Both the position numbers and the translations under genes were made by a program. Below the pieces are notes generated by a model that was given only the letters and a program-made list of their open reading frames with translations, had not been told where the DNA came from and ran no database searches. Shown piece after piece: positions 8,139-62,416 of a stretch of 64,000 bases of DNA (positions are counted from its first letter, which is position 1; each line of letters starts with the position of its first letter). Origin of the DNA: Reclinomonas americana ATCC 50394 (Eukaryota); NCBI GenBank assembly GCA_048213135.1, contig PS015009.1:434001-498000 (forward strand). The letters are read 5' to 3'.

Positions 8139-8149
8139 GTTTTTTGTTT

Positions 8150-10755: not shown

Positions 10756-10766
10756 GGTTGTTTTTA

Positions 10767-11249
10767 TTAAGATGCTTTTTCCAGTAAAACCGTTGCATAG
10801 GCTACAAGTCCTTCTTCCCTGCCTACAAAACCCATATGCTCGGTGGTGGTAGCTTTAATGGAAACGTCTTCTGTTGTCAATTCCGTAATACCGGCGATGG
10901 TACTTTGCATATCAGCCACGTAGGGTTTTATTTTGGGTGCCTGTAGACATAAGGAGCTGTCGATATTAACGACGCGGTAGCCTTTAGCCCTGATGAGTTC
11001 ATAAGTTTTCCGGAGGAGGATTTTACTGTCGATATTCTTAAGGGATGGATCGGTATCGGGGAAATGAACGCCTATATCGCCAAGGGCAAGGGCGCCCAGC
11101 AGGGCGTCGCAGATCGCATGAAGCAGTACGTCTGCATCGCTGTGGCCCAGGGCGCCTTTAGTATGCGGGATCTTCACGCCTCCAATCCAAAGTTCCCTTC
11201 CTTCCACGAGTTGATGAAAATCGATTCCCGAACCTATGCGATAAGCCAT
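10767..11249 (-). CDS. ispF: 2-C-methyl-D-erythritol 2,4-cyclodiphosphate synthase
   Basis: RIGSGIDFH, GHSDADVLLHAICDALLGA and KATTTE motifs. Confidence 0.95.
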   Translation of the reverse strand: MAYRIGSGIDFHQLVEGRELWIGGVKIPHTKGALGHSDADVLLHAICDALLGALALGDIGVHFPDTDPSLKNIDSKILLRKTYELIRAKGYRVVNIDSSLCLQAPKIKPYVADMQSTIAGITELTTEDVSIKATTTEHMGFVGREEGLVAYATVLLEKAS

Positions 11250-11358
11250 ACTGCTGATGTATTTATCCCGTAAATATCAGCATTTTAGATGGAATAAAAA
11301 TAAAAAAGCGCCCCGGGGATCAACCGGGACGCCTTTTACATGAAAATTTATACTTGAA

Positions 11359-12513: not shown

Positions 12514-12660
12514 GCGTTTTGTTTTGTCTTGGTTAGGTAGACTTACCTCTATAAGCGTTAAGTTTAATGGTTGTGTTCTAGTTGTAAAAATAACGGTTTT
12601 ATTGAAATGAACAACTAAATTATAAAATCTTGTTAAAAAATCCAAAACCGGGAACCATTG

Positions 12661-12668
12661 CAAAGATA
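12661..12668 (-). promoter_or_regulatory. Bacteroidota sigma70 -7 element (TATCTTTG) upstream of porV
   Basis: Exact match to the TAnnTTTG consensus on the minus strand. Confidence 0.5.
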
Positions 12669-13362
12669 AGCGCTTTTATCTCTCCCACAATACCACGAAT
12701 GGGTAAGTCGCTATTTATATCTTTCTATTAATCAGCCTCTCCGGCCTCGGTGGACCATAAAACGTCCAATGCTTGTGATTATTGCGGCAGCTTTTCCTTT
12801 CACTTTCTGCGGAAAACCGGCATTTGCGGTGCTTTCTGACTGGAAATTGTACCGCTTACAGTCAGTATCTGTTTCATTTACACAGGAATACCGGCTATGG
12901 TAACCGTTCTTTTGCAACATTATAACACCTGAACGTATCCACCAAAAAAAACGGCAAGAATATTTGTACTTAATTTTTTATACGAAAAAATAAATACCCC
13001 GGACCGTAAGGACTTTTTTTACCGGGAAAGGCGGCTTTACCCTGTCTCATCCGGCTTCAAAGAGCAGCCAGGCCTTTGGCCGGGCGAAAAACCGGAATAC
13101 AGACAACAGGTTTTTTCAATTCGTTGCATAACAATCCGTTATTTTTTTCATCTTCTCCTGTCTTTTGATTTGGATTCCTGCTGTCCTTTCTCCAAAGGCC
13201 TTGCCGGTGGCGGCATTCGTTTATCCACAACGCTTCCCGAACCGGACGGTAAAAAAACAGGGGTAAATATTCCAATTTCAGGCAAAGTAATTATATTCGC
13301 AGCCTGTGTAACCCCACATACAATAATTAAGGAAACCTTTCGTTAAACAATTCGACAAACGA

Positions 13363-46670: not shown

Positions 46671-46714
46671 ATACCCCGCACAGGCATTTTTCAGCTGGTG
46701 CGGGGTATTTCTTT
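46671..46714 (+). terminator. Terminator-like hairpin after fumC
   Basis: ATACCCCGCAC...GTGCGGGGTAT followed by a T-rich tail. Confidence 0.6.
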
Positions 46715-47133
46715 AAACCCTTTACTGTAGCGGGTTTCATCCGATTAAAATATCCTTCCTTTCCCGCATTTTTATTTTTCAGAAAGAAAAAGTTTCAAAA
46801 AATATTTTTTGTACTCTGAAAAATATCTATAAATTTATACTCATCCGATTTCAAACTGTCTTAAACTGTACCCTTATGAGAATGTTGCATTTTTCCTGCA
46901 AAATCTGTTTCTGCACTACGCTACATCAGGAATTCCATCTGCGTTTAAACACATCTGAAATTACACAAGGACGACTTTGGCATTAAAGAAATGCCCCGGG
47001 TTGTATCAACAGTAAAGTTCGTCCTGTTAAACCCACACACCGCTTCCATTATTACCGGTTTACCGGTTCGGTCATGATTATTCTTCTGCCCTAGGAATTA
47101 ATCAAGTTTTTTTTAACCAATAAATAAAAAACG

Positions 47134-47301
47134 ATGACTGAAAACAAAAATCTCGTTCAGGATTTGAAACAAGCCCTGTCCGTAATGGAACTCGAAGAAA
47201 GATTCGAAATGACAGCTGCTGCTGCAGATGCCCTGCGTTGCGGTGACAACAACAGTTGCACCATCAAAACAGAGGTTCCTACATCAACAGCTTCTGTGTA
47301 A
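47134..47301 (+). CDS. RiPP precursor peptide A1 (55 aa), not in the ORF track
   Basis: Hand translation: MTENKNLVQDLKQALSVMELEERFEMTAAAADALRCGDNNSCTIKTEVPTSTASV; paralog of A2 and A3. Confidence 0.88.
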   Translation: MTENKNLVQDLKQALSVMELEERFEMTAAAADALRCGDNNSCTIKTEVPTSTASV

Positions 47302-47319
47302 GCAGCATCCACTTGCTTA

Positions 47320-47347
47320 AGGGGCAGTAATGTCCGTTACTGCCCTC
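47320..47347 (+). other. Intergenic stem-loop after precursor A1 (repeated at 47570-47597; variant at 47830-47857)
   Basis: GGGCAGTAA-tgtccg-TTACTGCCC. Confidence 0.75.
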
Positions 47348-47383
47348 TCTTTCCTGTTTTTTTTAACCAATAAATACACACAA

Positions 47384-47551
47384 ATGACAAACAACAAAAA
47401 CATGGAACTGGAGCTGAAGCAGGCTCTGTCTGTGATGGAACTCGAAGAAAGGTTCGAAATGACAGCTGCCGCTGCCGACGCTCTGCGTTGCGGTGACAAT
47501 GACAGCTGCACCATCAAAACACAGGCGCCAACTTCAACAGCATCTGTGTAA
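47384..47551 (+). CDS. RiPP precursor peptide A2 (55 aa)
   Basis: MTNNKNMELELKQALSVMELEERFEMTAAAADALRCGDNDSCTIKTQAPTSTASV; start set by alignment with A1. Confidence 0.88.
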   Translation: MTNNKNMELELKQALSVMELEERFEMTAAAADALRCGDNDSCTIKTQAPTSTASV

Positions 47552-47633
47552 GCAGCAACAACTTGCTTAAGGGGCAGTAATGTCCGTTACTGCCCTCTTT
47601 AACCTGTTTTTTTTAACCAATAAATACACACAA

Positions 47634-47804
47634 ATGACAAACAACAAAAACATGGAACTGGAGCTGAAGCAAGCTCTGTCCATCATGGAACTGGAAGAAA
47701 GGTTCGAAATGACTGCTGCTGCTGCTGACGCTCTGCGTTGCGGTGACAACCAAAGCTGCACCATTATCGTACAGCCGGCACCTAAAGCAGAAGTGTCACT
47801 GTAA
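47634..47804 (+). CDS. RiPP precursor peptide A3 (56 aa)
   Basis: MTNNKNMELELKQALSIMELEERFEMTAAAADALRCGDNQSCTIIVQPAPKAEVSL. Confidence 0.88.
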   Translation: MTNNKNMELELKQALSIMELEERFEMTAAAADALRCGDNQSCTIIVQPAPKAEVSL

Positions 47805-47917
47805 TTCCTGGTTTCCAAAAGTCACATGTAAAGGGGCAGTATCATTACTGCTCCTTTATAGCCTGAAGAGGTCAACGTATTCATTTTTTACATCATGCAA
47901 AATATGTGCCGGTCAAT

Positions 47918-48094
47918 ATGAAAAACGATAAACTGAAAAGCCTGGTAAGGCAGATCGCGGAAAACACCACGGAAAAAAAGGAAAAGGATCCCGGGATATT
48001 GCAGAACCTCTCCCGTGATTTCCTGGCCAAGGAACTGAAGAAACAGGAAGACAATAAACACGTGATCACCGAATCACACAACATCACCCGGTAA
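47918..48094 (+). CDS. Small charged hypothetical protein (58 aa)
   Basis: MKNDKLKSLVRQIAENTTEKKEKDPGILQNLSRDFLAKELKKQEDNKHVITESHNITR; ends 13 nt before the rSAM start. Confidence 0.55.
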   Translation: MKNDKLKSLVRQIAENTTEKKEKDPGILQNLSRDFLAKELKKQEDNKHVITESHNITR

Positions 48095-48107
48095 ACCGTT
48101 AAAGATC

Positions 48108-49460
48108 ATGAAATTCGCCCTGTCCTATTATACGATCGCGTCCGACGCTTTTATGTCCGCTAAATATGAACTGCCTGTTCGGGTATTGTACAGCTCCCGT
48201 TCGGGTAAAGCGCTTACCATCAGCGACAGCCTCTATGACAAGATCAGTATGAATGATTATTCCGGCCTGTCGTATGAAGACCTGGAACAACTGATTGAAA
48301 CGGAAGCCATTGTTCCTGAAGGAGAAAATGAACTGGAAACCGTAATCAGTGCCAATAAGGGCGAGCTGAACGACAGTACCACACTGAGTTACATTATACA
48401 ACCTACGGCCCAGTGCCAGCTGGGCTGCGACTATTGCGGGCAGGCACATACCAAGAAACAGATCGACGCCGACATGTACGAGAATATTCTGAAAAGGATC
48501 GAGTACAAACTGCTGACCGGTATATACACAACACTGCGTATATCCTGGTTCGGATCTGAACCGCTGGTGGGCCTGCGCAACATACGTGAACTCACTCCCC
48601 GGCTTAAGCTGCTGGCCGAAGCTTATAACTGCCGTTACGGTGCCGCCATCGTTACCAACGGACTTTCCCTCAAGCCCAATATTTATAAGGAACTGGTGAC
48701 GGAGTACGACATCGACGGTATCGAAATCACACTGGACGGCGTTGCCGAGTTCCACGACAAAAGGAGGCACACTAAAGAAGGTGAAGGAACTTTCGACATC
48801 ATTTTTAAAAACCTGCTGGCGGTATGCGACAGTGAAACATTTGAAAAGAGCAATACGCAAATTTCCATTCGTTGCAATATCGATAAAAGAAATTATGAAG
48901 GTGTGTCGCCGCTTATACAACTGCTGGCAAAGCATGGATTACAGAAGAAAATAAAATTCTATCCCTCTCCCATTCACTCGTGGGGCAATGACGCTCATAC
49001 CCTGTCCCTGGAGAAAGAGGAATATGCTAATAAAGAAATTGACTGGATCATTGAAATGGCGCAGCACGGCTTCCCGCTTACCGGCCTTATTCCCGGCACC
49101 AAAAGAAGTGTATGTATTGCCGTTACCGGCGACGCGGAAGTGGTTGACGCCTATGGAAATATTTTCAACTGCACCGAAGTGCCTTATGTTCCAATATACG
49201 AGAACTCGGATTATATACTGGGCAATATCAAATCAACACCCGCTGACGTCACCATTACCAAAAGATCTTTCCAGGACTGGAACGACCAGGTGCTGAACGA
49301 TAACAATACCTGCTCTACCTGCAAGATGCTGCCCGTATGTGGCGGCATGTGTCCCAAATCCTGGGCGGAAGGCATTGCGGCCTGCCCAAGCAATAAATTC
49401 AACATCAAGGATAAACTGGTACTCGCTTACATGTATACCAATAACGAATTACCCGCTTAA
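48108..49460 (+). CDS. Radical SAM/SPASM peptide maturase with putative N-terminal RRE
   Basis: CQLGCDYC (CX3CX2C); WFGSEPL, VTNG, ITLDG; SPASM cysteines C...GNIFNC...CSTCKMLPVCGGMC...C. Confidence 0.9.
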   Translation: MKFALSYYTIASDAFMSAKYELPVRVLYSSRSGKALTISDSLYDKISMNDYSGLSYEDLEQLIETEAIVPEGENELETVISANKGELNDSTTLSYIIQPTAQCQLGCDYCGQAHTKKQIDADMYENILKRIEYKLLTGIYTTLRISWFGSEPLVGLRNIRELTPRLKLLAEAYNCRYGAAIVTNGLSLKPNIYKELVTEYDIDGIEITLDGVAEFHDKRRHTKEGEGTFDIIFKNLLAVCDSETFEKSNTQISIRCNIDKRNYEGVSPLIQLLAKHGLQKKIKFYPSPIHSWGNDAHTLSLEKEEYANKEIDWIIEMAQHGFPLTGLIPGTKRSVCIAVTGDAEVVDAYGNIFNCTEVPYVPIYENSDYILGNIKSTPADVTITKRSFQDWNDQVLNDNNTCSTCKMLPVCGGMCPKSWAEGIAACPSNKFNIKDKLVLAYMYTNNELPA

Positions 49461-49469
49461 TACGGCCCT

Positions 49470-50432
49470 ATGGTAATAACAGAAAAATACAACCTGGAAG
49501 AACTGATCCACCTGCTGAGCAGGCAGGCAGATAAAAAGAAACAACCCGACGACTTCCTGAAATCGGGCATACTGCTGATCAATAAAGCCAAGGAACATCT
49601 GGACCGGGACGAAGTATTTGAACTGCTCTACCTTTTCAACCAGTGCAAAAAAGGGTACTATGAAATACTGAAACGCAACCGCATATCGGCTTCCTGGTTT
49701 TTTGAAAAAATAGAAAGCTGGATCAGCACCAGGTATACAGAAAAGCCCTACTGCGCCGCCATCGCTTTCCTTTTCCTGGCCAAGAACTATGCGGATATGC
49801 AGGCTGATTATGTCCGGGCGAAAGAAATGCTGATAAAAGGAATCGGTGCAATTGATACCCTGTTTGCGAAAGATGCAGATGGTCTTTTCATCCGCCTTAA
49901 AAATTTTATGCTGGTGCTGTACAACAAAGCCCTTGTAAAAGAAGGCGAAGTGGCTGCTGCTGTAAATAACCTCACGGAAGAATTGTGCCGCCACCTTGGT
50001 AGCGCCACAGGTGAGCAGGCATCCGATACTGATGAATGTATCTATCGCTTATTCACCGATCTCTACGGTTTTTCTTTATTCAGCGACGCTGTTGCGGGTT
50101 ATATGAAACAACACATCAGCGACGCCTGTAACCGTCAGCAGGATATGCCCGGAACGGGTTATACCGGTTATTTCATAGCGGCGGAAAGAGCCATCGCCGG
50201 GGATGATATAACCGTGTATTTTGAAAAGATCACGGATATGGCAAGGTCATTTTCCGATCCTGCGCAGGCCGCCATGCTGGCCTACCAGTTTGCACAGGGC
50301 GACAAATACCTGGCAATGCAGAACGATCCCATGCGGACATCATTCGCCCTGGCCTTTGAAATTTTTGTAAAACGTACCATGCCGGGCTATGTATCGGAAA
50401 AAATGTTCGACAGTAAGAAACAACTACAATAA
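49470..50432 (+). CDS. Hypothetical, predicted helical protein (320 aa)
   Basis: Tightly coupled within the operon; no motif recognised. Confidence 0.65.
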   Translation: MVITEKYNLEELIHLLSRQADKKKQPDDFLKSGILLINKAKEHLDRDEVFELLYLFNQCKKGYYEILKRNRISASWFFEKIESWISTRYTEKPYCAAIAFLFLAKNYADMQADYVRAKEMLIKGIGAIDTLFAKDADGLFIRLKNFMLVLYNKALVKEGEVAAAVNNLTEELCRHLGSATGEQASDTDECIYRLFTDLYGFSLFSDAVAGYMKQHISDACNRQQDMPGTGYTGYFIAAERAIAGDDITVYFEKITDMARSFSDPAQAAMLAYQFAQGDKYLAMQNDPMRTSFALAFEIFVKRTMPGYVSEKMFDSKKQLQ

Positions 50433-50453
50433 ATCACTCAGAAAAGATCTAAA

Positions 50454-51194
50454 ATGGAAAAAGGGAAACTGGTTTTGGTTACCGGCGGAAGCCGCGGAAT
50501 TGGAAAAGCCATCTGCCTGGAATTGGCAGGCAAAGGGAATGTCATCCTATTTACTTACCTGTCCAACGAAGAAGCCGCCAACGCCACAGAAGCTGAATTA
50601 CAGGCGATCAGCGAATTCGGGCACAAAGGATTTAAGTGCGACATGGCCGACAAGGAAGCTGTGCAGCAGTTATTCAAACAGATCCATAAGGATTTTGGTA
50701 AAGTGGAAGTGCTGGTCAACAATGCCGGTATTACCGGGAATGTAAAATTATTTATGATGACCTCCGATACAGACTGGTGGTCCATCTTCAATAATAATTT
50801 TCAATCCGTGCTGAATGCCGTACGTTTTGTTTTGCCGGGTATGATATCAAAAAAGGATGGTATTATCATCAACATGGGTTCCCTGTCGGGAAAGGATGGA
50901 ACTCCCGGCTCATCGGCTTATTCCTCCTCCAAAGCCGCCATCATCACTTTTACCAAATGCCTCTTCCAGGAACATGCGCAACATGGTATCAAAGCCTTTT
51001 GTGTATCGCCCGGTTTTGTAGAGACCGATATGATCAAAGATGTTCCCGAACCCTATATCAAGTACAGGATGGTGAAAACACCATTGCGCCGCCCCGGCAC
51101 AACCGCCGAGATCGCCAACCTTGTTGCTTACCTGGCAGGATCGCCCCCTGCATTGCTGGGCGGACAGGATATCAGTATTGACGGACTGCAATAA
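50454..51194 (+). CDS. 3-oxoacyl-ACP reductase (FabG-like SDR)
   Basis: TGGSRGIG, VNNAG, YSSSK and PGFVETDM motifs. Confidence 0.9.
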   Translation: MEKGKLVLVTGGSRGIGKAICLELAGKGNVILFTYLSNEEAANATEAELQAISEFGHKGFKCDMADKEAVQQLFKQIHKDFGKVEVLVNNAGITGNVKLFMMTSDTDWWSIFNNNFQSVLNAVRFVLPGMISKKDGIIINMGSLSGKDGTPGSSAYSSSKAAIITFTKCLFQEHAQHGIKAFCVSPGFVETDMIKDVPEPYIKYRMVKTPLRRPGTTAEIANLVAYLAGSPPALLGGQDISIDGLQ

Positions 51195-51206: not shown

Positions 51207-52424
51207 ATGAAGAAAAGAATTGTAATTACCGGGATGGGCATACTGTCCTCCATTGGCGACACGGTGGAAGAATTCACCTCCAGCCTGTATAACGGCGTAT
51301 CGGGACTCAAACCCATACCAGCCGAAAGATTTTCCACTGAATCGAGGGTGTACCGTAACCGCAACGCCCACGTGATCAGGCAGGAATTGTTCAGCTCCAT
51401 ACTTGCAGATGATGAAACTGTTCTGCGGGAAGCCTCCGTAAGGGCCATCCGCCAGGCCATTACCGACGCGGGGCTTGACATGAATACAATAAATAAACGC
51501 AGCCTCGGGCTTTGTATAGGTACATCTGTCGGTTCCAACTTTCCTTTTATGAGGTGGGTGAATGAGTTCCTCAAAGACAGCAGCGCCATGCAAACGCTGA
51601 TCACCACGCCCACCATTGCCGGCGCCGTTGCCAAAACATTCGGCGTGCTGGGCCCCGTCAGTACGATATCTACCGCCTGCGCCGCAGGCACCAACAGCAT
51701 AGGCAGGGCCTGCGATTTCATCAGCAATGACAGGGCCGAATACATGATCGCGGGAGGTATCGATATTTTTACAGATCATTCTTTCAGTGGTTTTAACAGC
51801 CTTACCGCCATTTCAAAAAGCGATTGCAAACCTTTCGACAACAACAGGGATGGCATGATGCTCGGCGACGCTTCCGCTTACTTTATCATGGAATCATATG
51901 AACACGCCGTTAACCGGGGTGCACGCATCCACGCCGAAGTGCTGGGTTATTCAACGCTGAACGAAGCTTATCATGCCACCGCGCCAACACCTGATGGTTC
52001 CATGGCCTACCGCGTGATGAACGAAGCCATCGCCTATTCAGGCATTCAGCCGCATGAAATAGAATACATCAATGCGCATGGCACCGCCACCAAGGCCAAT
52101 GACGAAATGGAGTTCGTTGCCATTAAGCGTTTTGTCAAAGACAATCCTGTATACATCAGTTCTACCAAATCGCTCACCGGCCATACGCTGGGCGCCGCCG
52201 GCAGTATAGAGCTGATGGCAACCATTGTAGGTATGCAGAACAATTTTATCCCCCCCTCTCTCAATGTGAGTTCCCCGATCGAACAGGAAGATTGTGCTAA
52301 CATGATCTTCGTGAAGGACAAGGGACTGCAGAAAGAGTTCAGCACCGCCATATCCAACTCCTTTGGCTTCGCCGGGAATATGGCCTCTATCGTTGTACGC
52401 AAAATCAATCATCATAACAATTAA
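51207..52424 (+). CDS. Beta-ketoacyl-ACP synthase (FabF-like, catalytic)
   Basis: TACAAG (Cys), NAHGT (His), GHTLGAAG (His) and NSFGFAG motifs. Confidence 0.92.
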   Translation: MKKRIVITGMGILSSIGDTVEEFTSSLYNGVSGLKPIPAERFSTESRVYRNRNAHVIRQELFSSILADDETVLREASVRAIRQAITDAGLDMNTINKRSLGLCIGTSVGSNFPFMRWVNEFLKDSSAMQTLITTPTIAGAVAKTFGVLGPVSTISTACAAGTNSIGRACDFISNDRAEYMIAGGIDIFTDHSFSGFNSLTAISKSDCKPFDNNRDGMMLGDASAYFIMESYEHAVNRGARIHAEVLGYSTLNEAYHATAPTPDGSMAYRVMNEAIAYSGIQPHEIEYINAHGTATKANDEMEFVAIKRFVKDNPVYISSTKSLTGHTLGAAGSIELMATIVGMQNNFIPPSLNVSSPIEQEDCANMIFVKDKGLQKEFSTAISNSFGFAGNMASIVVRKINHHNN

Positions 52425-52435: not shown

Positions 52436-52705
52436 ATGACTATCGAAAACATCCAACTGAAGATCAACAGCATCATTATCGATGTACTGAAGCTGAACAA
52501 AAAACCGGAAGAACTGGCGCCCGAAACACCGTTCTTTTCCACTTCGCCTACCAATCCCGGTATCGTGGAAGATTCACTGGCCATCCTGGAAATATCTTCC
52601 CGCATTGCTGAAGAGTTTGACCTGATCCCCGGCGAGATTGATGAAAAAGATTTTCAGAACATTGGCACGCTGAGTTCCGCCATCGCGACCTTAAAAGCCG
52701 CCTGA
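52436..52705 (+). CDS. Acyl carrier protein
   Basis: 89 aa, acidic; GIVEDSL phosphopantetheine-Ser motif; EEFD...F.NIGTL. Confidence 0.82.
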   Translation: MTIENIQLKINSIIIDVLKLNKKPEELAPETPFFSTSPTNPGIVEDSLAILEISSRIAEEFDLIPGEIDEKDFQNIGTLSSAIATLKAA

Positions 52706-52738: not shown

Positions 52739-53923
52739 TTGGAAAAGAACGTTTTCATAGATAAGGTCCATGCCATAGACAACAATATCGGCAACCGGGA
52801 AAGTAAAAAACTGGCCGGGGCTCTTGCAAAGGATTTCAACTTTGTATCGGCTAACCTGTCCAATTTTTTGCCTGCTATTCCGCAGGAACAGCACTGGGAC
52901 CTCTATGTTGAACTAATGCGCAACCGTTCGCTCGCCGTTTTTCACAGTGAACTTACGCAACTCGCAGACCGCATGGAAGCGAGAGGCGACCTGGGTTTCC
53001 TGGAAACGGTTGGTAAGAAACCCTGTATCTTTTGTAATTATCACCTGGGGTCGTACCGGGCACTGCTGGGTTTCCTGGTGAACAGGAAGATCGACTTCGC
53101 CTTATTGCTCGACAACCGTACTTTTTCCGAACAGGGCGATAAAATAAGGGCAAGCATCGCTTCACTTCAGCAACACGCACAACACGAAGTATCCTTTGAT
53201 CTTTTCAACGTGGAAAACCCCGCTGCCATGATGCATATCGGGCAATGGATCAAAGCCGGAAAATCGCTGGTGGCCTACCTTGATGGCAATACCGGTTATG
53301 GCGGTATCAAAAGCGGGAAACAGGAAGTGTATGCACAGCTTGAATTTATGGGTATGCCCATCAGCAGCCGCAAAGGCATAGCCACGCTGTCTTATATCAC
53401 CAATGTGCCGATCATTCCCGCCATCAGTTATTTCGAAGATCGGGAAGCAGCCCCTGTACTCGACTTTCATCCGCCTGTTATACCACACAGGGAAACGCCC
53501 AGGGAAACCTGGGTAACGGATACCCTCCAGCGGTTGTATGCCATTCTTGAAAACAAACTGCGCCAGTATCCCCTGCAATGGGAAGCCTGGCTTTATGTTC
53601 ACAAGTTTCTTGACATGGAAACATTGCAAAAACGTTATGCCGTCGAAAAGGGTGACGTCGCCATACCAGGTAATGAAGACGCGGAACTGTCTTTTAATAA
53701 AGCGCTGTACGGTCTTTTCCTGCTGGATGAAACGCCTTACCTGTTCAACAGGCGTACCTATATCACGTACGAGATCAATGAACCGGTATTCAGCACCCTG
53801 CAGCAACTCGCGGCAAAAGACAGTATGCGCCGGGCTGAACTGAACATAAGCGACAGCAGCATGGGGCAGTTACTGGCACTGAATGTTTTATCACCTTGTT
53901 TACAAAACGCGGGAACCATATGA
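52739..53923 (+). CDS. LpxL/LPLAT-superfamily acyltransferase with C-terminal RRE-like domain
   Basis: TTG start; NYHLGSY, YLDGN, EFMG...RKGIATLS...VPIIP and YPLQWEAW motifs; extra ~75-aa C-terminal beta3-alpha domain. Confidence 0.68.
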   Translation: MEKNVFIDKVHAIDNNIGNRESKKLAGALAKDFNFVSANLSNFLPAIPQEQHWDLYVELMRNRSLAVFHSELTQLADRMEARGDLGFLETVGKKPCIFCNYHLGSYRALLGFLVNRKIDFALLLDNRTFSEQGDKIRASIASLQQHAQHEVSFDLFNVENPAAMMHIGQWIKAGKSLVAYLDGNTGYGGIKSGKQEVYAQLEFMGMPISSRKGIATLSYITNVPIIPAISYFEDREAAPVLDFHPPVIPHRETPRETWVTDTLQRLYAILENKLRQYPLQWEAWLYVHKFLDMETLQKRYAVEKGDVAIPGNEDAELSFNKALYGLFLLDETPYLFNRRTYITYEINEPVFSTLQQLAAKDSMRRAELNISDSSMGQLLALNVLSPCLQNAGTI

Positions 53924-55350: not shown

Positions 55351-56001
55351 ATGGAACGTGTTGCTGTGGTTTGGACAGATAAAAAAGAGTGTACCGGCGA
55401 CCGGTACCTGGCGGGCATACTTGCGGGACTTAAAGAAGAATTTACCAGCAGGTACCATTTCCTGGCACCTCGCGAAGAGACCATCATCGGGCGGTTACTG
55501 TTGTGCAGCCTGTTACCCGGGATGTCACTTTCGGCTCTCATGAAAAACACCACCTATTCCGCCACAGGAAAACCTTATTTACAAGACGGCAGCCGGCATT
55601 TCAGTATCAGTCATTCCGGCGACCTGGTTATAGCCGCCTGTTCTGATCATGGCGGGATTGGGATAGACACCATTGAAACCGTTCGGATGAAAGATCAATC
55701 TCTCTCCTTTCTTCACCCGGATGAAAAGGAAGCTTATGATTCAAGTGAAGATAAGACCGCTTATCTCGGCAGTGTATGGACGAAAAAGGAAGCGATCTCA
55801 AAACTGACCGGCCAGGGCTGGGTGCCCGGATTTTCGGGCATCAATACAGAACATCCTGTGATCAACGGGCAACTGTTCCGGTTGGGAAAAATTGATATAC
55901 ATAACAATTACAGCACCCACATCGCCAGCGAAGAAAAAATTATGCCGGTGCTGACCCGGTTGTCTGCCAGGCAACTGATCAACCGGCAGCACTATAACTA
56001 A
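55351..56001 (+). CDS. 4'-phosphopantetheinyl transferase (Sfp-type)
   Basis: GKPY, FSISHSG, IGID and WTKKEAISK motifs. Confidence 0.85.
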   Translation: MERVAVVWTDKKECTGDRYLAGILAGLKEEFTSRYHFLAPREETIIGRLLLCSLLPGMSLSALMKNTTYSATGKPYLQDGSRHFSISHSGDLVIAACSDHGGIGIDTIETVRMKDQSLSFLHPDEKEAYDSSEDKTAYLGSVWTKKEAISKLTGQGWVPGFSGINTEHPVINGQLFRLGKIDIHNNYSTHIASEEKIMPVLTRLSARQLINRQHYN

Positions 56002-56010: not shown

Positions 56011-56457
56011 ATGATAAGCAATACTACTTTACCACAACCTTCTGCCCTGCTGCCGCATGGTGAACCTATCCTGCAAATAGACAGGATACTGGAATATATA
56101 CCCGGCAAAGGCCTGACAGCACAAAAAGAGATCACCGAAGAGAACCCATTTCTTAAAGGACATTTTCCGGGCTACCCGCTTATGCCGGGCGTAATACTGA
56201 TAGAAATGATGTTCCAGTCCTGCGGACTTTACGGAAGAATGGAAGCCGCCACCGGTGCTGTTGAAGAAGGAGCGAAAAAAATCGGCAAGGCCATTAAGAT
56301 CAATAATGCCGTATTCAAAAGTGAAGTACGACCGGGCGACCTGCTGGAGATCAGCGTACAGTTCAAACAAAAAATATTTGCCTTTTCTGTATTCGACTGC
56401 AGCATTACCAGCGATAAAAAAGTAGTGGCCGAAGCAGAAGTGACCGTATACATTTAA
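56011..56457 (+). CDS. 3-hydroxyacyl-ACP dehydratase (FabZ-like)
   Basis: LPH..PILQID, GHFPGYPLMPGVILIE and VRPGD motifs. Confidence 0.9.
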   Translation: MISNTTLPQPSALLPHGEPILQIDRILEYIPGKGLTAQKEITEENPFLKGHFPGYPLMPGVILIEMMFQSCGLYGRMEAATGAVEEGAKKIGKAIKINNAVFKSEVRPGDLLEISVQFKQKIFAFSVFDCSITSDKKVVAEAEVTVYI

Positions 56458-56468: not shown

Positions 56469-57704
56469 ATGACAAATCATAAAGAACGCATCCTCATTAC
56501 CGGCATTGGCGCCCTCAGTAACCTGGGTATTGGTATTAAGGATTCCGTGGAACACATCAGGCAGAACAAACCTTCGTTTACGGAAAAAAGCGAATGGACA
56601 GTAGAAGGACTCGATAAAGAATATATCGGGGAGTGCGCCGGGTTTGAGTTTGAAAAGGTTTTTGAAAACCCCGGAACGGTTTTCCGGTATTCCCAACTAT
56701 CGATCATGGCCTGCAAGCTGGCACTGGATGATGCCGGGCTGGCGCCTCATACGGGCGACTCTTCCCGCACCGGCCTTATCATCAATTCCGATCTTGGTGC
56801 CAGCACCGCGGCTGAAAATTACGCGATGAAATTATACGCCAAAGGGCCGGAAAGGGTAAGCCCTTTTGACTTTACCAAATCCGTTGCCAACTGCGTAATC
56901 GGCGATACCGCCCGCCAGTTCAAGATCACCGGCGCCAGCTCTTTTATCATTGGAGAGAACAGCATCTCGTATGGCTTCAACCTGCTGCAGGACGGCAAGG
57001 CAGACATCATTATTTGCGGCGGTGTTGATGAACTGAGGGACAGAACGCTGTGGAATTATTCAAGACGGGGATTGACCGTGCCGGTGAATGGCTCCGATCC
57101 CGCTACGAACAGTCCTTCCAGTTTGCCCGGAGAAGACAACCGTATGCTTTTTGGTGAAGGCGCCGCCTTTGTGGTGCTTGAAACCGAATCCCATGCCAAA
57201 CAAAGGGGCGCTAAAATTTATGCGGAGATGCTGGGAGAATTTTCAGGATGCGATTCATTATGCAACGAGATCATCTGGGAAAGATCGCCGGAAGATCTTT
57301 CTTATAATATGCGCAAGGCAATGGAAGTATCGGGTATAGGTCCGGAGCAGGTATCTTTTATCATGGGTGCATCCACGCTTCCCTGGCAGGTGAACGCCTA
57401 TGAAGTACCCGCCATTGAAGAAGTGTGGAAAAACGAACCCGTAAAATACAGCAGCATCAAGTGCAGGACCGGGGAAACATTCAGCTCATCGCCGGTACTC
57501 TCTTTCGCGCTGGCGGCGGCTTACCTGTCGGAAGGCGCTATTCCCGGAACAGGCTGGCCCGCGTCTTTGTGGCAGCACAACCCGCAGCACATTCAAATGA
57601 TCGCTGCAGATGAATCAATAGGAAATGAACCGGCCTGTTGTCTTGTCAATTCCATACAACTGGGCGGCAATACTACATCAGCCATCATAAAAACATATCA
57701 ATAA
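56469..57704 (+). CDS. Non-catalytic ketosynthase homolog (chain-length-factor-like)
   Basis: KS fold motifs ITGIG, VSPF, GEGAAFVVLE and GGN, but no TAC, HGT or GH motifs at the catalytic positions. Confidence 0.75.
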   Translation: MTNHKERILITGIGALSNLGIGIKDSVEHIRQNKPSFTEKSEWTVEGLDKEYIGECAGFEFEKVFENPGTVFRYSQLSIMACKLALDDAGLAPHTGDSSRTGLIINSDLGASTAAENYAMKLYAKGPERVSPFDFTKSVANCVIGDTARQFKITGASSFIIGENSISYGFNLLQDGKADIIICGGVDELRDRTLWNYSRRGLTVPVNGSDPATNSPSSLPGEDNRMLFGEGAAFVVLETESHAKQRGAKIYAEMLGEFSGCDSLCNEIIWERSPEDLSYNMRKAMEVSGIGPEQVSFIMGASTLPWQVNAYEVPAIEEVWKNEPVKYSSIKCRTGETFSSSPVLSFALAAAYLSEGAIPGTGWPASLWQHNPQHIQMIAADESIGNEPACCLVNSIQLGGNTTSAIIKTYQ

Positions 57705-57721: not shown

Positions 57722-59929
57722 ATGATAAGAAGGGCAGTACGAATTATATCCGTGATACTGGGGCTGACGCTCCCTGTACCTCTTTTTGCCCAGTTTAAAC
57801 TGAAGGGGGTTATCCGTAACGCGGACCTTAAACCCGTGGCGAACGCGAAAGTATATTTCAAGGAAGATTTTGAATTTGTATACTCCGATGTCAACGGCAA
57901 TTTTCAGTTGCCGCTTACCGACACCGGCAATTTCATCATTGTGGCCGAGCTATCGCCCTATCCTCCCGCCGAAGCGGATATTACCATAAAGGAACTGACC
58001 CGTGATCTTTCCGTTACCCTTTCGCTGAGTCAGAAGTCAGGAAGCGTTCTGAAGAATGTTACCGTTAAAGCCGCGGTACTGAGTGCTACGAATGACAAGG
58101 CCCGGTCGGAACTGTTTGCCAAGATCGATATACTGACCACGGCAGGTTCCAATGCCGATATTACCTCTGCCTTTAAAACCCTGCCGGGTACCCAGCAGGC
58201 CGTTTCGGAAGACGGGTTATTTGTAAGGGGTGGCCAGGGATCTGAAACACAACCTTATATTGACGGACTACGCACGCCGAATTTTTATTACAGCGGCGCA
58301 CCCGACATTTCCCACCGGGGTCGTTTCCCGCCCTCACTTTTTAAAGGTTCTTTCTTCGCCAGTGGTGGCTATTCAGCGCAATATGGACAGGCATTGTCAT
58401 CCGTTATCGTACTGGAAACGGAAGGATTGCCTGCCAGCAGTTCTATAGACTTTAACATTGGTACGGTAGGCGCCGGCGCTTCGGCCAATATGTTGTCGAA
58501 GAATGGCCGCTCGTCGTACGGAGGGTCGATCAGTTATCTTAACCTGCGGCCTTACTACAGTATCATTAAACAGGCATACGATTTTGAAGAGCCGCCTTAC
58601 TTCCTCGATGGCAGTATTTTCTTCAGGATCAAGACAGGGAAAAAAGGCCTGCTCAAATTGTACAGCAGCCTGTCGCAAAGTGACCTGTCCCTGTTCCGGC
58701 AAAATATAGATTATGATTACCGGCAGGATTACTACAGGTTACGTAACAAAAACAGCTACAGCAATATTTCCTATACATCGGCACTCAGCAACAACTGGTC
58801 GCTGGAGTCGGGTGGTGCATGGGGACAGAACAGGGATATTTTCAGGCTGGGCCAGGTGGACTCTGCCACCACTTCGCGGTACAAAGACAGTTCGGTAATG
58901 AATTACTCGCTCCAGGGAAGGATCGCACTGAAAAAAAGATTCGACAATAAATTATCGCTGCTTACCGGCACAGAGTACCAGTACTATTATAAAAAATTCG
59001 ACAAGAGCAGTGTATTGAGTACGGCGCATGCCAGTTTCTCTGACAACTACGCCGCCTTGTTTGCTGAAATGAATTATGAAATAGCCGATAAGCTGAACGC
59101 AAGGCTGGGTGTAAGAGGTGAATATTCATCGATCCTCAACAGGCTTGTCGCCGCCCCGCGTGCCATGGTGGATTACAATTTTTATAAAAACTACCACCTT
59201 AACTTTTCTTACGGGCAGTTTTACCAGAAGCCCGAAGAGGACATGTTCTTCTTCAAACAGGATATGCGTTTCCTGAAATCGACCCATTATATCCTGGGTC
59301 TGCAAAAACTGAAAACGAATTCCTATACGCTCCGCGTGGAAGCGTATTACAAGAAATATGACCGGCTTACCCTGTTCACCCCAGACACCACGCAGGATGG
59401 GTACGGCTATGCCAGGGGGATCGAGTTTTTCTGGCGTAAAAAGATCAATGAGAAGAGTATGGAATACTGGATATCCTACTCTTACCTGGATTCAAAAAGA
59501 AAGTTCTGGTATTATCCTGTGTATACACAGCCTGGCTTTGTTTCCAATCACGCCATGTCGCTTGTGTTCAAACGTTATTTCAGTAAGATCAGTACACATA
59601 TCGCAGCGTCCTATTCTTTTGAATCGGGCAAACCTTATTATAACCCGTTGCGCTCCACATCTGAATACCTGGAAGACCGCACCAGCAGCTACCGCAACCT
59701 GAACCTGAGCGTAGCCTATGTAAGAAATATTAAGAAAGTGTATTCCATATTCGTAGTAACAGTAAGTAATGTGCTGAATGACAAACAGGTTTTTGGATAC
59801 CGGTATTCCTCCGTCGACATCAACAAAAGACAGGAGGTCAAACCGCTGGCCGGCAGGTTCATATTTATAGGCGCATTTTTCAGCATTGGGATCGACAGAA
59901 CGGAAGACGCCTTTAACAGGTCACTATAA
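57722..59929 (+). CDS. TonB-dependent receptor with N-terminal carboxypeptidase-regulatory-like domain
   Basis: Signal peptide from ATG 57722; plug motifs LPG...LFVRGG...IDG and GGYSAQYGQALSSVI; beta-barrel-like C-terminal half. Confidence 0.82.
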   Translation: MIRRAVRIISVILGLTLPVPLFAQFKLKGVIRNADLKPVANAKVYFKEDFEFVYSDVNGNFQLPLTDTGNFIIVAELSPYPPAEADITIKELTRDLSVTLSLSQKSGSVLKNVTVKAAVLSATNDKARSELFAKIDILTTAGSNADITSAFKTLPGTQQAVSEDGLFVRGGQGSETQPYIDGLRTPNFYYSGAPDISHRGRFPPSLFKGSFFASGGYSAQYGQALSSVIVLETEGLPASSSIDFNIGTVGAGASANMLSKNGRSSYGGSISYLNLRPYYSIIKQAYDFEEPPYFLDGSIFFRIKTGKKGLLKLYSSLSQSDLSLFRQNIDYDYRQDYYRLRNKNSYSNISYTSALSNNWSLESGGAWGQNRDIFRLGQVDSATTSRYKDSSVMNYSLQGRIALKKRFDNKLSLLTGTEYQYYYKKFDKSSVLSTAHASFSDNYAALFAEMNYEIADKLNARLGVRGEYSSILNRLVAAPRAMVDYNFYKNYHLNFSYGQFYQKPEEDMFFFKQDMRFLKSTHYILGLQKLKTNSYTLRVEAYYKKYDRLTLFTPDTTQDGYGYARGIEFFWRKKINEKSMEYWISYSYLDSKRKFWYYPVYTQPGFVSNHAMSLVFKRYFSKISTHIAASYSFESGKPYYNPLRSTSEYLEDRTSSYRNLNLSVAYVRNIKKVYSIFVVTVSNVLNDKQVFGYRYSSVDINKRQEVKPLAGRFIFIGAFFSIGIDRTEDAFNRSL

Positions 59930-59958: not shown

Positions 59959-60621
59959 ATGAAAATGATGAAACTAATCGGGTTGGGTTTATTGATCGCG
60001 GCCATCCCTTTTGCATCGGAAGCGCAAAACAAAAAAGAGGCCAAATACCTGGCTGCTATGAAAAGCGCTGTAGCCATTGTGGACACCTGCGAAACCAAAG
60101 AAGTATTTCTTGGCGTGCAGGAAAAATTCAGCCATATCGCTTCACAGAGAAAGACCGACTGGCTGCCTTACTATTATATCGCCTTCTGTTATACACATGT
60201 CGCCATGATGAACAAGGTACCCGACAGTATTGAATATTACACCCAGCTGGCCGACCAGGCCATCACCATGTCGGATTCGCTGAATAAAAAGAACGCTGAA
60301 CTGTATTGCCTGAAAGCATTGAATACCATCGCTAAAATAGATGTTGATTTTATGAAAAGGGGTTTGCAGTATTCTTCGCTGGCCAATAAAATGCTCGACG
60401 AAGCACAAAAGATCGACTCGGCAAACCCACGGGTGTATTACCTGAAAGGCAGGTTCCTGTATGGCCGGCCGGTACAGTTTGGCGGTGGTAAAAAAGCGGC
60501 GAAGCCCTGGTTTGAAAAAGCCGTGGCCGCTTATACCGCTCACAACGACCGCACCAGCATTTACCCGCACTGGGGCGATAACCTCGCCAACAGGTTACTG
60601 CTCGCCTGCAAAGAAGATTGA
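59959..60621 (+). CDS. Secreted TPR-like helical protein
   Basis: Signal peptide; WLPYYY, NPRVYYLKG...FGGGK..A and PHWG motifs, typical of partners of this receptor type. Confidence 0.7.
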   Translation: MKMMKLIGLGLLIAAIPFASEAQNKKEAKYLAAMKSAVAIVDTCETKEVFLGVQEKFSHIASQRKTDWLPYYYIAFCYTHVAMMNKVPDSIEYYTQLADQAITMSDSLNKKNAELYCLKALNTIAKIDVDFMKRGLQYSSLANKMLDEAQKIDSANPRVYYLKGRFLYGRPVQFGGGKKAAKPWFEKAVAAYTAHNDRTSIYPHWGDNLANRLLLACKED

Positions 60622-60643: not shown

Positions 60644-61639
60644 ATGATCCGATCAATGAAATTTTTTAAGACCGGCGAACCAACCGATGTTCTTTCTTTT
60701 GAAGATCATGAACTTGTTCCGCTGGAAGATATTGAAGTAAGGGTACGCGTCCGCTACAGCAATATCAATTATTCCGACCTGGTGGTGGTGAGGGGGCAGT
60801 ATGGCTACCTGCTCGATCTTCCGGCCGTAGCCGGTGCTGAAGGTGTGGGCACTATCATTGCAACCGGCAAGGCCGTAACAGAGTTTGCCGTTGGTGACCG
60901 GGTAACTTTTCACAGTTCCGCCGGTGGCGCCTGGGCAGAAGAGATTAACCTGCACCAGAAACACGTAGTGAAAGTTCCCGAAAAAATGAGCGATGAAGTA
61001 GCCGCACAGTTCTTTACCAATCCCATTGCGGCAGTGGCTATGCTGGATGAGGCGAATGTTCAAAGCGGGGACACCATACTGGTAACCGCGGCAGGATCAT
61101 CATTGGGTAAACTGCTCATCCAGTTCGCCCAACGAAGGGGCATTGCCGTTATTGCCGTAACCCGTACCGATGATCTTACAGAATACCTGCTGGAACTGGG
61201 CGCCAAAGCCGTGATCAATTCTGAGAAAGAGAACCTGAGCATAAGGGTAAAAGAGCTTACCGATAACCAGGGTGTACAATTCATTTTTGATGCCGTATCG
61301 GGTAAACTGGCCAACCAGCTGATGTACTGCATGGCTGAAGGCGGCAGGTATATTCTTATCGGCGCCCTGAGTGCGGAAAGGATACCGCTGAACTCCAGCC
61401 TCATCATTGCCAGGAACATCATCATCGATTCCTTCTGGGCACATCGCTGGTACCTGAAGCAGTATCGCGTTTCCCCGGAGCAGCACCGCGAACTCCGCAA
61501 AAAAGTGATACAGGATATGGCCGACTGGGATATACAATTGCCGGTTGATAAAATATACCCGCTCAGCGATACGGTTGAGGCCCTGCGGCATTTTCAGCAA
61601 AGCGGACGGGCGGGCAAAATACTGATCAGCTGCACCTGA
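60644..61639 (+). CDS. MDR-superfamily oxidoreductase (enoyl-thioester reductase-like)
   Basis: INYSD, GAEGVG, VGDRV, TAAGSSLG and GKIL motifs. Confidence 0.82.
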   Translation: MIRSMKFFKTGEPTDVLSFEDHELVPLEDIEVRVRVRYSNINYSDLVVVRGQYGYLLDLPAVAGAEGVGTIIATGKAVTEFAVGDRVTFHSSAGGAWAEEINLHQKHVVKVPEKMSDEVAAQFFTNPIAAVAMLDEANVQSGDTILVTAAGSSLGKLLIQFAQRRGIAVIAVTRTDDLTEYLLELGAKAVINSEKENLSIRVKELTDNQGVQFIFDAVSGKLANQLMYCMAEGGRYILIGALSAERIPLNSSLIIARNIIIDSFWAHRWYLKQYRVSPEQHRELRKKVIQDMADWDIQLPVDKIYPLSDTVEALRHFQQSGRAGKILISCT

Positions 61640-61669: not shown

Positions 61670-62416
61670 ATGAAACTGAACGATATTATATATGCGCTGG
61701 CAACAGATACGGTGACACTGGCCCTGTTTTTAGCCGTTGTTTTTTTCTTCCGGAAACAGGTGGTAAAACCCGCCATGCTGCTGCATTTTATTATAGCTTT
61801 TTATATCATCGAAACCTTATCATTCCTCGGCACATTGCTGCAGGTACAATTGTTTCCATCGCTCGAATACAGCTGGGTAAGCAAACTAGTAACGCTTATC
61901 TCCGTGCTGGTGGTTTACAGGATATGGTTTCCCGGCCTTTTCAGGCAATTCGGGTTTACAGCCCCCGGGAATAAGGAATACCTGAGGTGGGGTATTATCC
62001 TGGTGGCCGGATTGATCGCTTTCAAATTCACGACCAACTATCTCAGTTCCGACATCGAAAAAATAACAACAGAGAATATCATCTACCAGGCTACACTGCC
62101 CGGTATACAGGAGGAGGTCATATTCCGGGGACTTTACCTGGCCCTGCTGGTCAATGCTTTTTCTGAAAGCAGCCAATCATTTCTCCGCGGAACAGGTGTT
62201 TATGGTGTACTGCTCATCCTGCTGTTCGCCCTCGTACACGCTGTGGAGATCGGTAACGGGTTTAAGTTTCATTTTAATGTGGTACTGTTTTTCTCTTCCG
62301 CGCTGGCCGGTTGGGTGTATACCTGGTTACGACAACGCAGCGGATCACTGGTACCGCCAATCATCGGTCATAATCTTACGAACCTGTCCATCAGCATAGC
62401 CCAACTGCTCAAATGA
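61670..62416 (+). CDS. CPBP family intramembrane metalloprotease (CAAX/Abi)
   Basis: EEVIFRG, FALVH and HNLTN motifs; multiple TM helices. Confidence 0.88.
   Translation: MKLNDIIYALATDTVTLALFLAVVFFFRKQVVKPAMLLHFIIAFYIIETLSFLGTLLQVQLFPSLEYSWVSKLVTLISVLVVYRIWFPGLFRQFGFTAPGNKEYLRWGIILVAGLIAFKFTTNYLSSDIEKITTENIIYQATLPGIQEEVIFRGLYLALLVNAFSESSQSFLRGTGVYGVLLILLFALVHAVEIGNGFKFHFNVVLFFSSALAGWVYTWLRQRSGSLVPPIIGHNLTNLSISIAQLLK

Follow-up and report, generated by a model that had tools for sequence, protein, structure and literature searches.

The 64,000-nucleotide stretch analysed here (positions 434,001 to 498,000 of the forward strand of contig PS015009.1, assembly GCA_048213135.1, filed under Reclinomonas americana ATCC 50394), which we call the window, carries at 47106-47855 on the plus strand a tandem array of three small genes, A1 to A3, followed by a tightly packed operon. 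As the putative precursors lie beside their own fatty-acid-building and peptide-modifying enzymes, the locus probably makes small cross-linked lipopeptides. Among the explanations considered, the best is a family of lipidated, thioether-cross-linked peptides made by the ribosome and then modified after translation (RiPPs), with a lipid module of its own; we consider it probable, the chemistry of the product being inferred. A1-A3 themselves are very probably real RiPP precursors, paralogous members of an uncatalogued Bacteroidota family, and they show what is expected of such genes in general, namely a small size, a position next to maturase genes, a conserved leader and a more variable core.

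The array consists of three units of 250 nt, each made of an A-rich 5' leader and a precursor gene that a hairpin follows. A repeat search placed them at 47106-47355, 47356-47605 (84% identical to the first unit) and 47606-47855 (63%), and Tandem Repeats Finder returned a period of 250 with 2.6 copies, 87% matches and a score of 989. The ATG-started open reading frames (ORFs) A1 (47134-47301), A2 (47384-47551) and A3 (47634-47804) encode 55, 55 and 56 residues on the plus strand and their start codons are spaced by exactly 250 bp. The three genes, their periodicity and their peptide sequences had all been reported in an initial annotation of this DNA, and they match both the ORF list and the repeat searches. 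The same annotation had rightly observed that A1 falls below the cutoff of the ORF list, being shorter than 60 residues, and that the list over-extends A2 and A3, which it carries up to ATGs at 47330 and 47580 within the preceding hairpins. The 28-nt 5' segments of the units share from 23/28 to 28/28 positions, and 49 of 54 positions are identical in the segments after the stop codons of units 1 and 2. Start-to-start spacings in related loci differ (255/190 bp in L002, 254/186 in L003 and 239/235 in L004), and an exact period of 250 bp is thus a peculiarity of the genome studied here.

Selection on the encoded peptides was evaluated over the block L11-I44 (34 codons), where the three copies differ at 10-12 of the 34 third positions. 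Nei-Gojobori counting returned proportions of synonymous differences (pS) of 0.37-0.57 and of nonsynonymous differences (pN) of 0.013-0.044, in agreement with the protein-level selection that had earlier been read from the synonymous differences, while the comparison of the window copies with those of L002 and L003 gave a pS of 0.41-0.84 and a pN of 0.04-0.11. A1-A3 are under strong purifying selection, and the low pN together with the high pS points to old paralogues held constant as protein, not to a recent duplication. These values also bear on the idea that the ORFs are incidental features of a non-coding tandem repeat or of an RNA element. The units of the array do hold conserved non-coding parts and stable hairpins, and what has been observed is RNA, not protein. 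However, a pN/pS ratio of about 0.02-0.12 in the conserved block and the persistence of reading frame and motif in 41 peptides despite the divergence of the DNA already contradict this idea, as does the Rfam scan, in which no family reached its gathering score, so that we regard it as extremely improbable. Antisense ORFs of 51-83 residues also lie opposite the precursors (47157-47818 in the window, minus strand; e.g. ...SPQRRASAAAAVISNLSSSS...) and recur in L002, L003, L004 and Chondrinema; they reflect the conserved codons of the sense strand and do not speak for genes.

A word-indexed search with the peptides yielded 21 proteins, four of them the window's own and 17 from elsewhere, none informatively named, and none of the family peptides matched a Pfam or NCBIfam model. 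The alignment of 20 sequences has 26 invariant columns, covering MELEERFE.TAA.ADALRCGDN..CTI, and its variable parts are the first ~10 and the last 6-12 residues. An exhaustive search of 1.84 billion representatives with a family profile gave 28 matches at E<=1e-3: two from the close family, 25 further small peptides (33-68 residues) and one spurious protein of 257 residues. In each of the four loci whose surroundings could be followed far enough, maturase genes lie next to the peptide genes. One distant member is listed as a "hypothetical protein" of Spirosoma validum. The distant set that was aligned comprises 24 of the 25 further small peptides (P0035 was left out), and in the resulting 41-peptide alignment E21, R23 and E25 are invariant, and 90% or more of the sequences retain L15, E19, L20, F24, T27 and C36. 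The motif common to the whole family is L..ELEER(F/H)E.T, followed ~8 residues on by (R/K)C. Three further hits were discarded. The metagenome matches L005 and L006 are chance ADALRCGDN strings within a helicase-like ORF, and L001, the only match of the peptide alignment in the genome contigs, is a chance match opposite a permease gene. No member was found when viral contigs were scanned with the peptide superfamily. The motif strings occur in no publication on bacteria or peptide natural products that the searches covered, and they are absent from the main text and one supplementary file of PMC7268733.

These alignments allow the leader to be separated from the core. The initial annotation had taken the peptides to consist of a leader conserved through CTI and of diverging tails, which does not hold for the distant relatives, as these share only the part up to (R/K)C. 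The leader therefore probably ends at Arg35, with R35|C36 as the most likely leader/core junction. It is acidic (ELEERFEMTAAAADALR), has no hydrophobic h-region and, by eye, places an Arg at position -1 to the Cys; no double-Gly cleavage site is visible in A1-A3, as had been remarked before. Past (R/K)C the distant members carry short, diverging cores (e.g. CDNNTVVIRLV, CSGNDVEVDVKVK and CTITGDLV), and on this comparison CGDNxxCTI is most likely a core specific to the subfamily, not a piece of leader, the variable tail being the C-terminal part of the core or a follower. In the window the predicted cores are CGDNNSCTI (A1, after leader residues 1-35), CGDNDSCTI (A2) and CGDNQSCTI (A3), with the tails KTEVPTSTASV, KTQAPTSTASV and IVQPAPKAEVSL, respectively. 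C36, D38, N39 and C42 are invariant in the close family, all 17 close members reading C36-G-D-N39-x-x-C42, a combination of CxxN and NxxC. Asn stands at Cys+3 in 17/17 close and 12/24 distant members, and the intermediates P0024 and P0025 read CGDNxxCNxxC, with NxxC twice.

The octapeptide ELEERFEM had been proposed as the leader recognition motif. ELEERFE is indeed the most conserved stretch of the 41 peptides, and its persistence across clusters with differing tailoring enzymes fits such a role. However, the motif cannot be a signal specific to the RiPP recognition element (RRE) of the radical S-adenosylmethionine (rSAM) enzyme, because ELEERHE is found in a Chondrinema cluster with no detected relative of that enzyme. 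The suggestion that the locus makes a small family of congeners also holds up: the arrays at all five loci hold differing copies (three each in the window, L002, L003 and L004; nine in Chondrinema), and the retention of several non-identical copies at every locus fits congeners.

Downstream of the array, all genes from the rSAM gene at 48108 to LanB at the window end are on the plus strand, with gaps of -28 to +33 bp. The first product (48108-49460; PF04055) is an rSAM/SPASM peptide maturase with an N-terminal RRE-like domain. It is followed by an all-helical, fast-evolving protein of 320 residues (49470-50432) that travels with the rSAM gene; this protein matched no Pfam or NCBIfam family, a word search returned only itself, structure recognition in the Atlas stayed below the bar, and its AlphaFold2 model, of low confidence (mean pLDDT 57.6), retrieved with Foldseek only weak TPR/Rap-like rows (E >=0.07). 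The lipid module begins with a FabG-type SDR ketoreductase (KR; 50454-51194; 51% identical to its Chondrinema counterpart) and an active ketosynthase (KS) of the KAS II type, in which the Cys-His-His residues are present (51207-52424; 55% to the Chondrinema KS). Then come an acyl carrier protein (ACP) with a DSL motif (52436-52705; 48% to Chondrinema hyp97) and an LpxL/LPLAT-like acyltransferase (52739-53923; 39% to Chondrinema). The latter has weak NCBIfam matches to lipid A/PIM acyltransferases, and its L002 orthologue matches PF03279 with an E of 7.6e-5; it is the candidate for the enzyme joining lipid to peptide. An adenylate-forming enzyme for starter loading (PF00501; 36% to Chondrinema) starts at TTG 53896 or ATG 53920 and ends at 55341. 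A 4'-phosphopantetheinyl transferase (PPTase; 55351-56001; 33%) and a FabZ-type dehydratase (DH; 56011-56457; 48%), both assigned by family matches, precede a KS-like protein (56469-57704; 42% to a Chondrinema "KS N-terminal-like" protein) that, aligned with the active KS, lacks the catalytic Cys and both His and thus resembles a chain-length factor (CLF).

The remaining genes of the operon encode a TonB-dependent-receptor-like outer-membrane barrel with a signal peptide and CarboxypepD_reg and Plug domains (57722-59929; 40% over 719 residues to the Chondrinema TonB-dependent receptor), a TPR-like protein of 220 residues (59959-60621) that resembles TPR/Sel1-like Atlas clusters (TM 0.82-0.90) and is 42% identical to Chondrinema hyp220, and an MDR-family reductase (60644-61639) similar to PIG3 quinone reductase and polyketide synthase enoyl-reductases, which has no counterpart in the Chondrinema locus. 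A CPBP (CAAX/Rce1-like) intramembrane protease (61670-62416; PF02517) scored 107.9 bits on the CPBP_Sphingo model, whose cut-off is 225, and may possibly have a processing or immunity function. The end of its gene overlaps by 4 bp the start of a LanB-type dehydratase gene (62413-64000; PF04738, E 9.8e-57), of which the window end leaves the N-terminal 529 residues. Between the array and the rSAM gene lies a possible small Lys/Glu-rich ORF of 58 residues (47918-48094, plus strand), uncertain as a gene and with no family match; a similar-size ORF stands at the equivalent position in L002 and L003, and the BLASTP similarity between them (E 0.27) is not significant.

The initial annotation had described precursor-type genes next to rSAM/LanB genes, and they proved to be selected, transcribed and adjacent to maturase genes. 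It had missed the genes for lipid synthesis. No other genes accompany the peptide family more constantly than these, as the related loci show. L002 and L003 are mutually close metagenome loci, each with three tandem precursors followed by the gene order of the window as far as the loci reach, from rSAM to the CLF-like KS. Identity to the window proteins in L002 and L003 is 66% for rSAM, 26-27% for the 320-residue protein, 55-56% for KR, 67-68% for KS, 63-64% for ACP, 43-44% for the acyltransferase, 47% for the adenylating enzyme, 30-31% for PPTase and 58-59% for DH, while the centre of the peptides is invariant in the three loci although the enzymes from rSAM to FabZ have diverged to 26-68% identity. 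L004, of 1087 nt, holds three precursor copies. Two further elements were seen upstream of the L002 array. A second and unrelated rSAM gene, with 24% identity to that of the window, is followed by genes for a C39-peptidase ABC exporter, a 170-residue ORF and a divergent LuxR-type response regulator (L002:4618-9323); together they probably form a separate RiPP cassette of the Gly-Gly type. The L002 array also has a tRNA-Lys(ttt) gene with a terminator (L002:9746-9818) ~180 bp upstream of it, and its cluster may therefore have come in as an island; the window array stands instead after fumC.

A more distant version of the locus is on the 641-kb plasmid NZ_CP111044.1 of Chondrinema litorale WSW3-B12, which has nine tandem precursors of the form MSKE(V/I)LK..LNIVELEERHEMTAVAA(D/E)ADRC, continued by IYSEK, TITQK, TITGDLV, IYKEA or IYKEASLV. 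Their cores measure 6-9 residues, and the residue at Cys+3 is Thr in four, Ser in three and Lys in two of the nine. In the PLSDB table for this RefSeq-derived record, eight of the nine precursors of this array (L022:13474-15376) have no coding sequence, the first alone being listed, as the hypothetical protein WP_284686454.1. Here the array is placed directly after the lipid genes and the gene order differs from that of the window, and yet eleven genes are common to both, with 23-55% protein identity: KS, CLF-like KS, ACP, KR, DH, adenylating enzyme, PPTase, LpxL/LPLAT-like acyltransferase, TonB-type barrel, TPR-like protein and LanB. A TonB-dependent receptor gene follows, and a full-length LanB with the elimination domain PF14028 lies alongside; a histidine kinase/LytTR pair adjoins this LanB, and a LanC-family gene (62.9 bits, cut-off 23.2) lies ~2.4 kb from it. 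The locus has no counterparts of rSAM, the 320-residue protein, the MDR reductase or the CPBP protease, and a search of the whole plasmid for rSAM relatives was empty at E<=1e-5, a weak negative since it had no positive control. The preservation of the eleven-gene set across a rearranged order marks the lipid module, the barrel, the TPR-like protein and LanB as constant partners of the leader family, and rSAM and the 320-residue protein, which have no Chondrinema counterparts, as an add-on of one subfamily. With fair assurance, then, we regard the precursors as functionally tied to the lipid module. The Chondrinema cluster also holds genes of its own, for an M50 metallopeptidase, an arginase-family protein (PF00491) and a type II thioesterase (L022:15582-21346), as well as UpxY; a possible substrate of the arginase-family protein is the conserved Arg that precedes the Cys, or else a guanidino starter unit.

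Expression of the array was evaluated on public sequencing runs, 20 of the 24 listed containing part of 46700-50500 and six of these being recorded as RNA. Four metatranscriptome runs were mapped as Logan contigs, X15 and X16 from one study and X17 and X18 from two others. In X15/X16 the summed contig depth is 245-677 just upstream of the array, 3.1e3-3.8e5 over it and 0-36 from 47843 on, and single contigs have a depth of 1972-14197 within the array versus 4.4-35.5 over the rSAM gene and beyond. Contigs of at least 99% identity cover 46860-47036, 47132-47345 and 47638-47810 in X17 and 47145-47340 and 47392-47590 in X18. Neither of these two runs covers anything past 47843, their contigs being too few for any inference on the enzyme genes. 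The data come as assembled contigs, not reads; each contig has a single flat depth that adds up all strains, and transcript ends cannot be seen in it. Moreover, 147 contigs can be placed at two sites, and some DNA may be present in an RNA library. The excess, however, is hundred- to ten-thousand-fold and limited to the array, which excludes DNA carry-over and makes it good evidence for strong transcription.

The stable hairpins of the array fall at the ends of its genes, namely hairpin 1 (47321-47346; an 11-bp stem and a T-rich run, -20.5 kcal/mol, z -4.05), also found by the terminator scan, hairpin 2 (47569-47599; followed by T8, -20.4 kcal/mol, z -3.63) and hairpin 3 after A3 (47827-47860; a 15-bp stem, -26 kcal/mol, z -4.71), all on the plus strand. 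None of 200 shuffled sequences folded as stably, and L002 has hairpins of different sequence at equivalent places. The 3' ends of the X17/X18 contigs coincide with hairpins 1 and 2 (47345 and 47340; 47590), and RNA contig depth drops from 10^4-10^5 to 0-36 past hairpin 3, a weak hint that the hairpins attenuate read-through; hairpin 1 is probably a partial terminator or a stabiliser. Upstream of the array, fumC has a terminator-like hairpin of its own directly past its stop codon (46672-46708; ACCCCGCAC...GTGCGGGGT, then a T-rich run), and an X16 contig (46719-47290) runs from just past this hairpin into A1, suggesting that the transcript has a long 5' leader or that a promoter lies between 46709 and 46719. 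A sigma-70 promoter scan gave matches at chance level only, and a strict Bacteroidota promoter pattern matched twice in the window, no more than by chance and not near the array.

The rSAM enzyme belongs to no named family, as every NCBIfam equivalog stays far below its cut-off (best match TIGR04463 with 207 bits against 525; PapB 95 against 340; SCIFF 52.7 against 425). Its AlphaFold2 model (pLDDT 91.4) retrieved the thioether-forming CteB (5why/5wgg) as the top Foldseek match, with an E of 4e-16 over 461-483 aligned columns that include the N-terminal domain; TigE, anSME, ChlB and SuiB followed, and sequence searches of the PDB agreed. On this model the likeness to CteB concerns the class of mechanism and not membership in a named family. 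By sequence, the enzyme falls into a large Bacteroidota family, with 606 relatives at E<=1e-20, the best 120 of these 606 being 47-69% identical, the window's own aside; the sources listed include Dyadobacter, Spirosoma, Runella, Mucilaginibacter, Hymenobacter and Rhabdobacter. It is found only with CxxN cores, and Chondrinema, with CxxS/T cores, LanB and LanC, has no such enzyme. The genome contigs scanned with the protein held no relative, and the viral contigs scanned with the alignment gave 14 loci, one of which (L008) was examined. A 39.5%-identical enzyme on a Rhizobium etli plasmid (L007:11671-16973) was set aside because of its unrelated context, with JmjC and GNAT genes and a different small protein. 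That enzyme is preceded by a 77-residue peptide ending in ...NSGCGKAKLNNLSGVDLMSKLNG and followed by the JmjC-domain and GNAT genes, another uncharacterised RiPP-like cassette.

The leading rival to a lipidated peptide is that two pathways share one operon, with lanthipeptide/rSAM RiPPs that carry no lipid and a separate lipid of the aryl-polyene or flexirubin kind that the LPLAT-like enzyme places on a membrane lipid, the two being merely co-regulated. The composition of the module (KS, CLF, ACP, KR, DH, adenylating enzyme and LpxL-like acyltransferase) accommodates this, because a set of KS/CLF, ACP, KR, DH, adenylating enzyme and LPLAT occurs also in aryl-polyene/flexirubin pigment clusters, so that the chain could be destined for a membrane lipid and not for the peptide. 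On the FlxB_rubin_SDR model the FabG-type reductase reached 194.7 bits, a score below the cut-off of 340 and no higher than those of generic FabG models; it does not qualify as a curated flexirubin enzyme on this model, the other signature genes not having been searched for. Goadvionins and selidamides use GNAT acyltransferases (PMC8784127), the enzyme type of known lipidated RiPPs, and a Pfam scan of 18 window proteins found no GNAT, an LpxL/LPLAT-like protein being there instead. In L008 (IMG/VR contig, 1-4480) a 49%-identical rSAM is followed by an unknown 300-residue protein and a C39 ABC exporter, without lipid genes, and the rSAM family is thus wider than the pathway proposed here; this contig begins exactly at the rSAM gene, and precursors would lie beyond its end.

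These points weigh against a lipopeptide product, and others must be set beside them. Lipidation is deduced from linkage only, and product, modification and binding are all predictions from sequence. The independent contexts amount to two lineages and Chondrinema. The window and Chondrinema LanB proteins share only 23% identity (E 3e-23 against the full-length Chondrinema protein), and the Pfam scan found no LanC among the 18 window proteins, the window ending inside LanB. Structural relatives of the rSAM enzyme (TigE, anSME and SuiB) do other chemistries, TigE being a cyclopropylglycine synthase. Two separate pathways, on the other hand, are hard to reconcile with a linkage that persists although the window lineage and Chondrinema differ in gene order and their proteins are 23-55% identical, with the tight packing of the window genes into one operon, or with the fact that in the four loci with enough context the peptide family never occurs without the lipid module. 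We therefore consider two merely co-regulated pathways unlikely and retain the lipidated, cross-linked RiPP, for which the acylation of the peptide itself, argued from gene linkage alone, is only slightly favoured.

The peptides might also be scaffolds or carriers, as in the PQQ, mycofactocin and pearlin pathways, in which case a small molecule would be built on the conserved Cys region or cut from it, the rest discarded, and no congeners formed. The surroundings of the Cys are extremely conserved (26 invariant columns in 20 peptides, against enzymes down to 27-67% identity), a LanB-type enzyme is present and the Chondrinema cores are very short, with 6-9 residues. But the C-termini vary in length and sequence, with tails of 6-12 residues, whereas the scaffold peptides known so far carry their modification at a C-terminus that is conserved. 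Several different cores are retained in every array, and the LanB of Chondrinema contains PF14028, the elimination domain of true dehydratases, and has a LanC gene nearby. A scaffold role is accordingly very unlikely, and a lipidated RiPP family with several congeners is preferred.

This preferred reading can be compared with known systems. With class I lanthipeptides, including the Bacteroidota group around the pinensins, the family shares LanB in the window operon, the full-length LanB and LanC beside the Chondrinema array, Cys with Ser/Thr in the cores, and an F-x-(L/M)-T box that resembles FxLD. The lanthipeptide leader motifs are FxLD and LxLxKx5L, and Bacteroidota are rich in class I clusters (PMC7268733); by eye, the leader motif F24-E-(M/L)-T27 (H-E-M-T in Chondrinema) matches neither of them exactly. 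The earlier statement that no FNLD-type box is visible is thus debatable, as the exact box is missing and F24-E-(M/L)-T27 resembles FxLD with Thr replacing Asp (PMC7268733). Unlike class I lanthipeptides, the cores here are very short and begin with Cys, and there are a full lipid-synthesis module and, in the window subfamily, an rSAM enzyme; lanthipeptide clusters with fatty-acid/polyketide or rSAM genes are noted in bulk in that paper but not described.

The CteB/SCIFF, PapB/freyrasin and NxxcB/NxxcA systems likewise pair a precursor with an rSAM/SPASM enzyme that has an N-terminal RRE-like domain, CteB being closest in predicted fold. The NxxC and Cys-Asp substrates likewise have Cys, Asp and Asn in CxxN/NxxC spacing in the core (PMC9389541), and the NxxC motif, N39-x-x-C42, is present in 17/17 close members. 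In contrast to these ranthipeptide/sactipeptide systems, the leader family here is unrelated, a lipid module and LanB are present, the enzyme is below all NCBIfam cut-offs and the cross-link is predicted.

Lipolanthines, goadvionins, selidamides and lipoavitides are likewise ribosomal peptides encoded with dedicated fatty-acid/polyketide enzymes and an acyltransferase (10.1101/2023.10.25.564083; PMC8784127). They come from Actinomycetota, Cyanobacteria and Pseudomonadota and rely on GNAT or other acyltransferases and on class III or AviCys chemistry, whereas the window locus is of Bacteroidota type and combines a KS/CLF pair, an LpxL/LPLAT-like acyltransferase, a class I LanB and rSAM, in a family with arrays of 3-9 precursors. 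The DAG-RiPPs of Bacteroidota and other phyla are also lipid-peptide hybrids, with the lipid on a Cys at the first core position (PMC13056109). They use a lipoprotein signal peptide and the housekeeping lipoprotein pathway, while the window leaders are acidic and, by eye, show neither a hydrophobic segment nor, ahead of the Cys, a lipoprotein signal peptide and its lipobox, and enzymes for lipid synthesis are encoded within the cluster. The minviopeptin paper (PMC12912966), judged by its outline, proved unrelated, and a keyword search of the literature, at the level of listings, returned no paper on a Bacteroidota peptide cluster with rSAM, LanB and KS-CLF. The locus therefore represents an uncatalogued leader family and an unusual combination of enzymes within the established logic of RiPP and hybrid biosynthesis.

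A pathway can be proposed on this basis. Transcription of the array would far exceed that of the enzyme genes, the hairpins serving to terminate it in part or to stabilise the RNA, and the leader would dock the peptide on the maturases. The CteB-like rSAM enzyme might then form one or two thioethers from Cys to Asn (or Asp) inside C36-x-x-N39-x-x-C42. Relevant precedents are NxxcB, which makes a Cys-Asn beta-thioether at NxxC, and PapB, which links Cys to Asp or Glu (PMC9389541); by this analogy a Cys-Asn/Asp thioether made by the window enzyme is a tentative assignment that we would not yet favour. LanB may dehydrate Ser40/41 or Thr43, and the leader would be cut off at R35|C36. The adenylating enzyme would load the starter, the KS/CLF set would elongate the chain on ACP, and the LPLAT-like acyltransferase would transfer the ACP-bound chain to the peptide, where the acceptor could be the N-terminal Cys after R35|C36 cleavage or a conserved Arg/Lys side chain. 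As guesses, the CPBP protease in the window or the M50 peptidase in Chondrinema may remove leader or tail, and the TonB-type barrel may handle the product. The three precursor genes would thus give three lipopeptide congeners.

A wider and more doubtful proposal is that one leader family serves a modular Bacteroidota pathway, in which a beta-thioether from Cys(i) to residue i+3 would be made either by LanB/LanC with a Ser/Thr acceptor (CTIT and CIYS in Chondrinema) or by rSAM with Asn (CGDN in the window, CxxN in distant members), and an LpxL-type enzyme, not a GNAT, would attach the KS/CLF chain. The Ser/Thr at Cys+3 in Chondrinema without rSAM, against CxxN with rSAM, suggests that the same ring is made heterolytically or radically, on few independent data points.

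Hybrids of RiPPs and lipids are rare, and as genetically encoded lipopeptides they are in demand; those known are mostly actinobacterial or cyanobacterial, most of them with GNAT acyltransferases. The locus described here indicates a different route in Bacteroidota, built from a KS/CLF pair, an LpxL-like transferase, a class I LanB and an optional rSAM enzyme. The proposal is directly testable, as Chondrinema litorale WSW3-B12 is cultured, the cores measure 6-20 residues and the precursors are highly transcribed, ranking among the most abundant transcripts of the locus in biofilm metatranscriptomes. The family as a whole would represent a natural experiment, in which one leader recruits different ring-forming enzymes.

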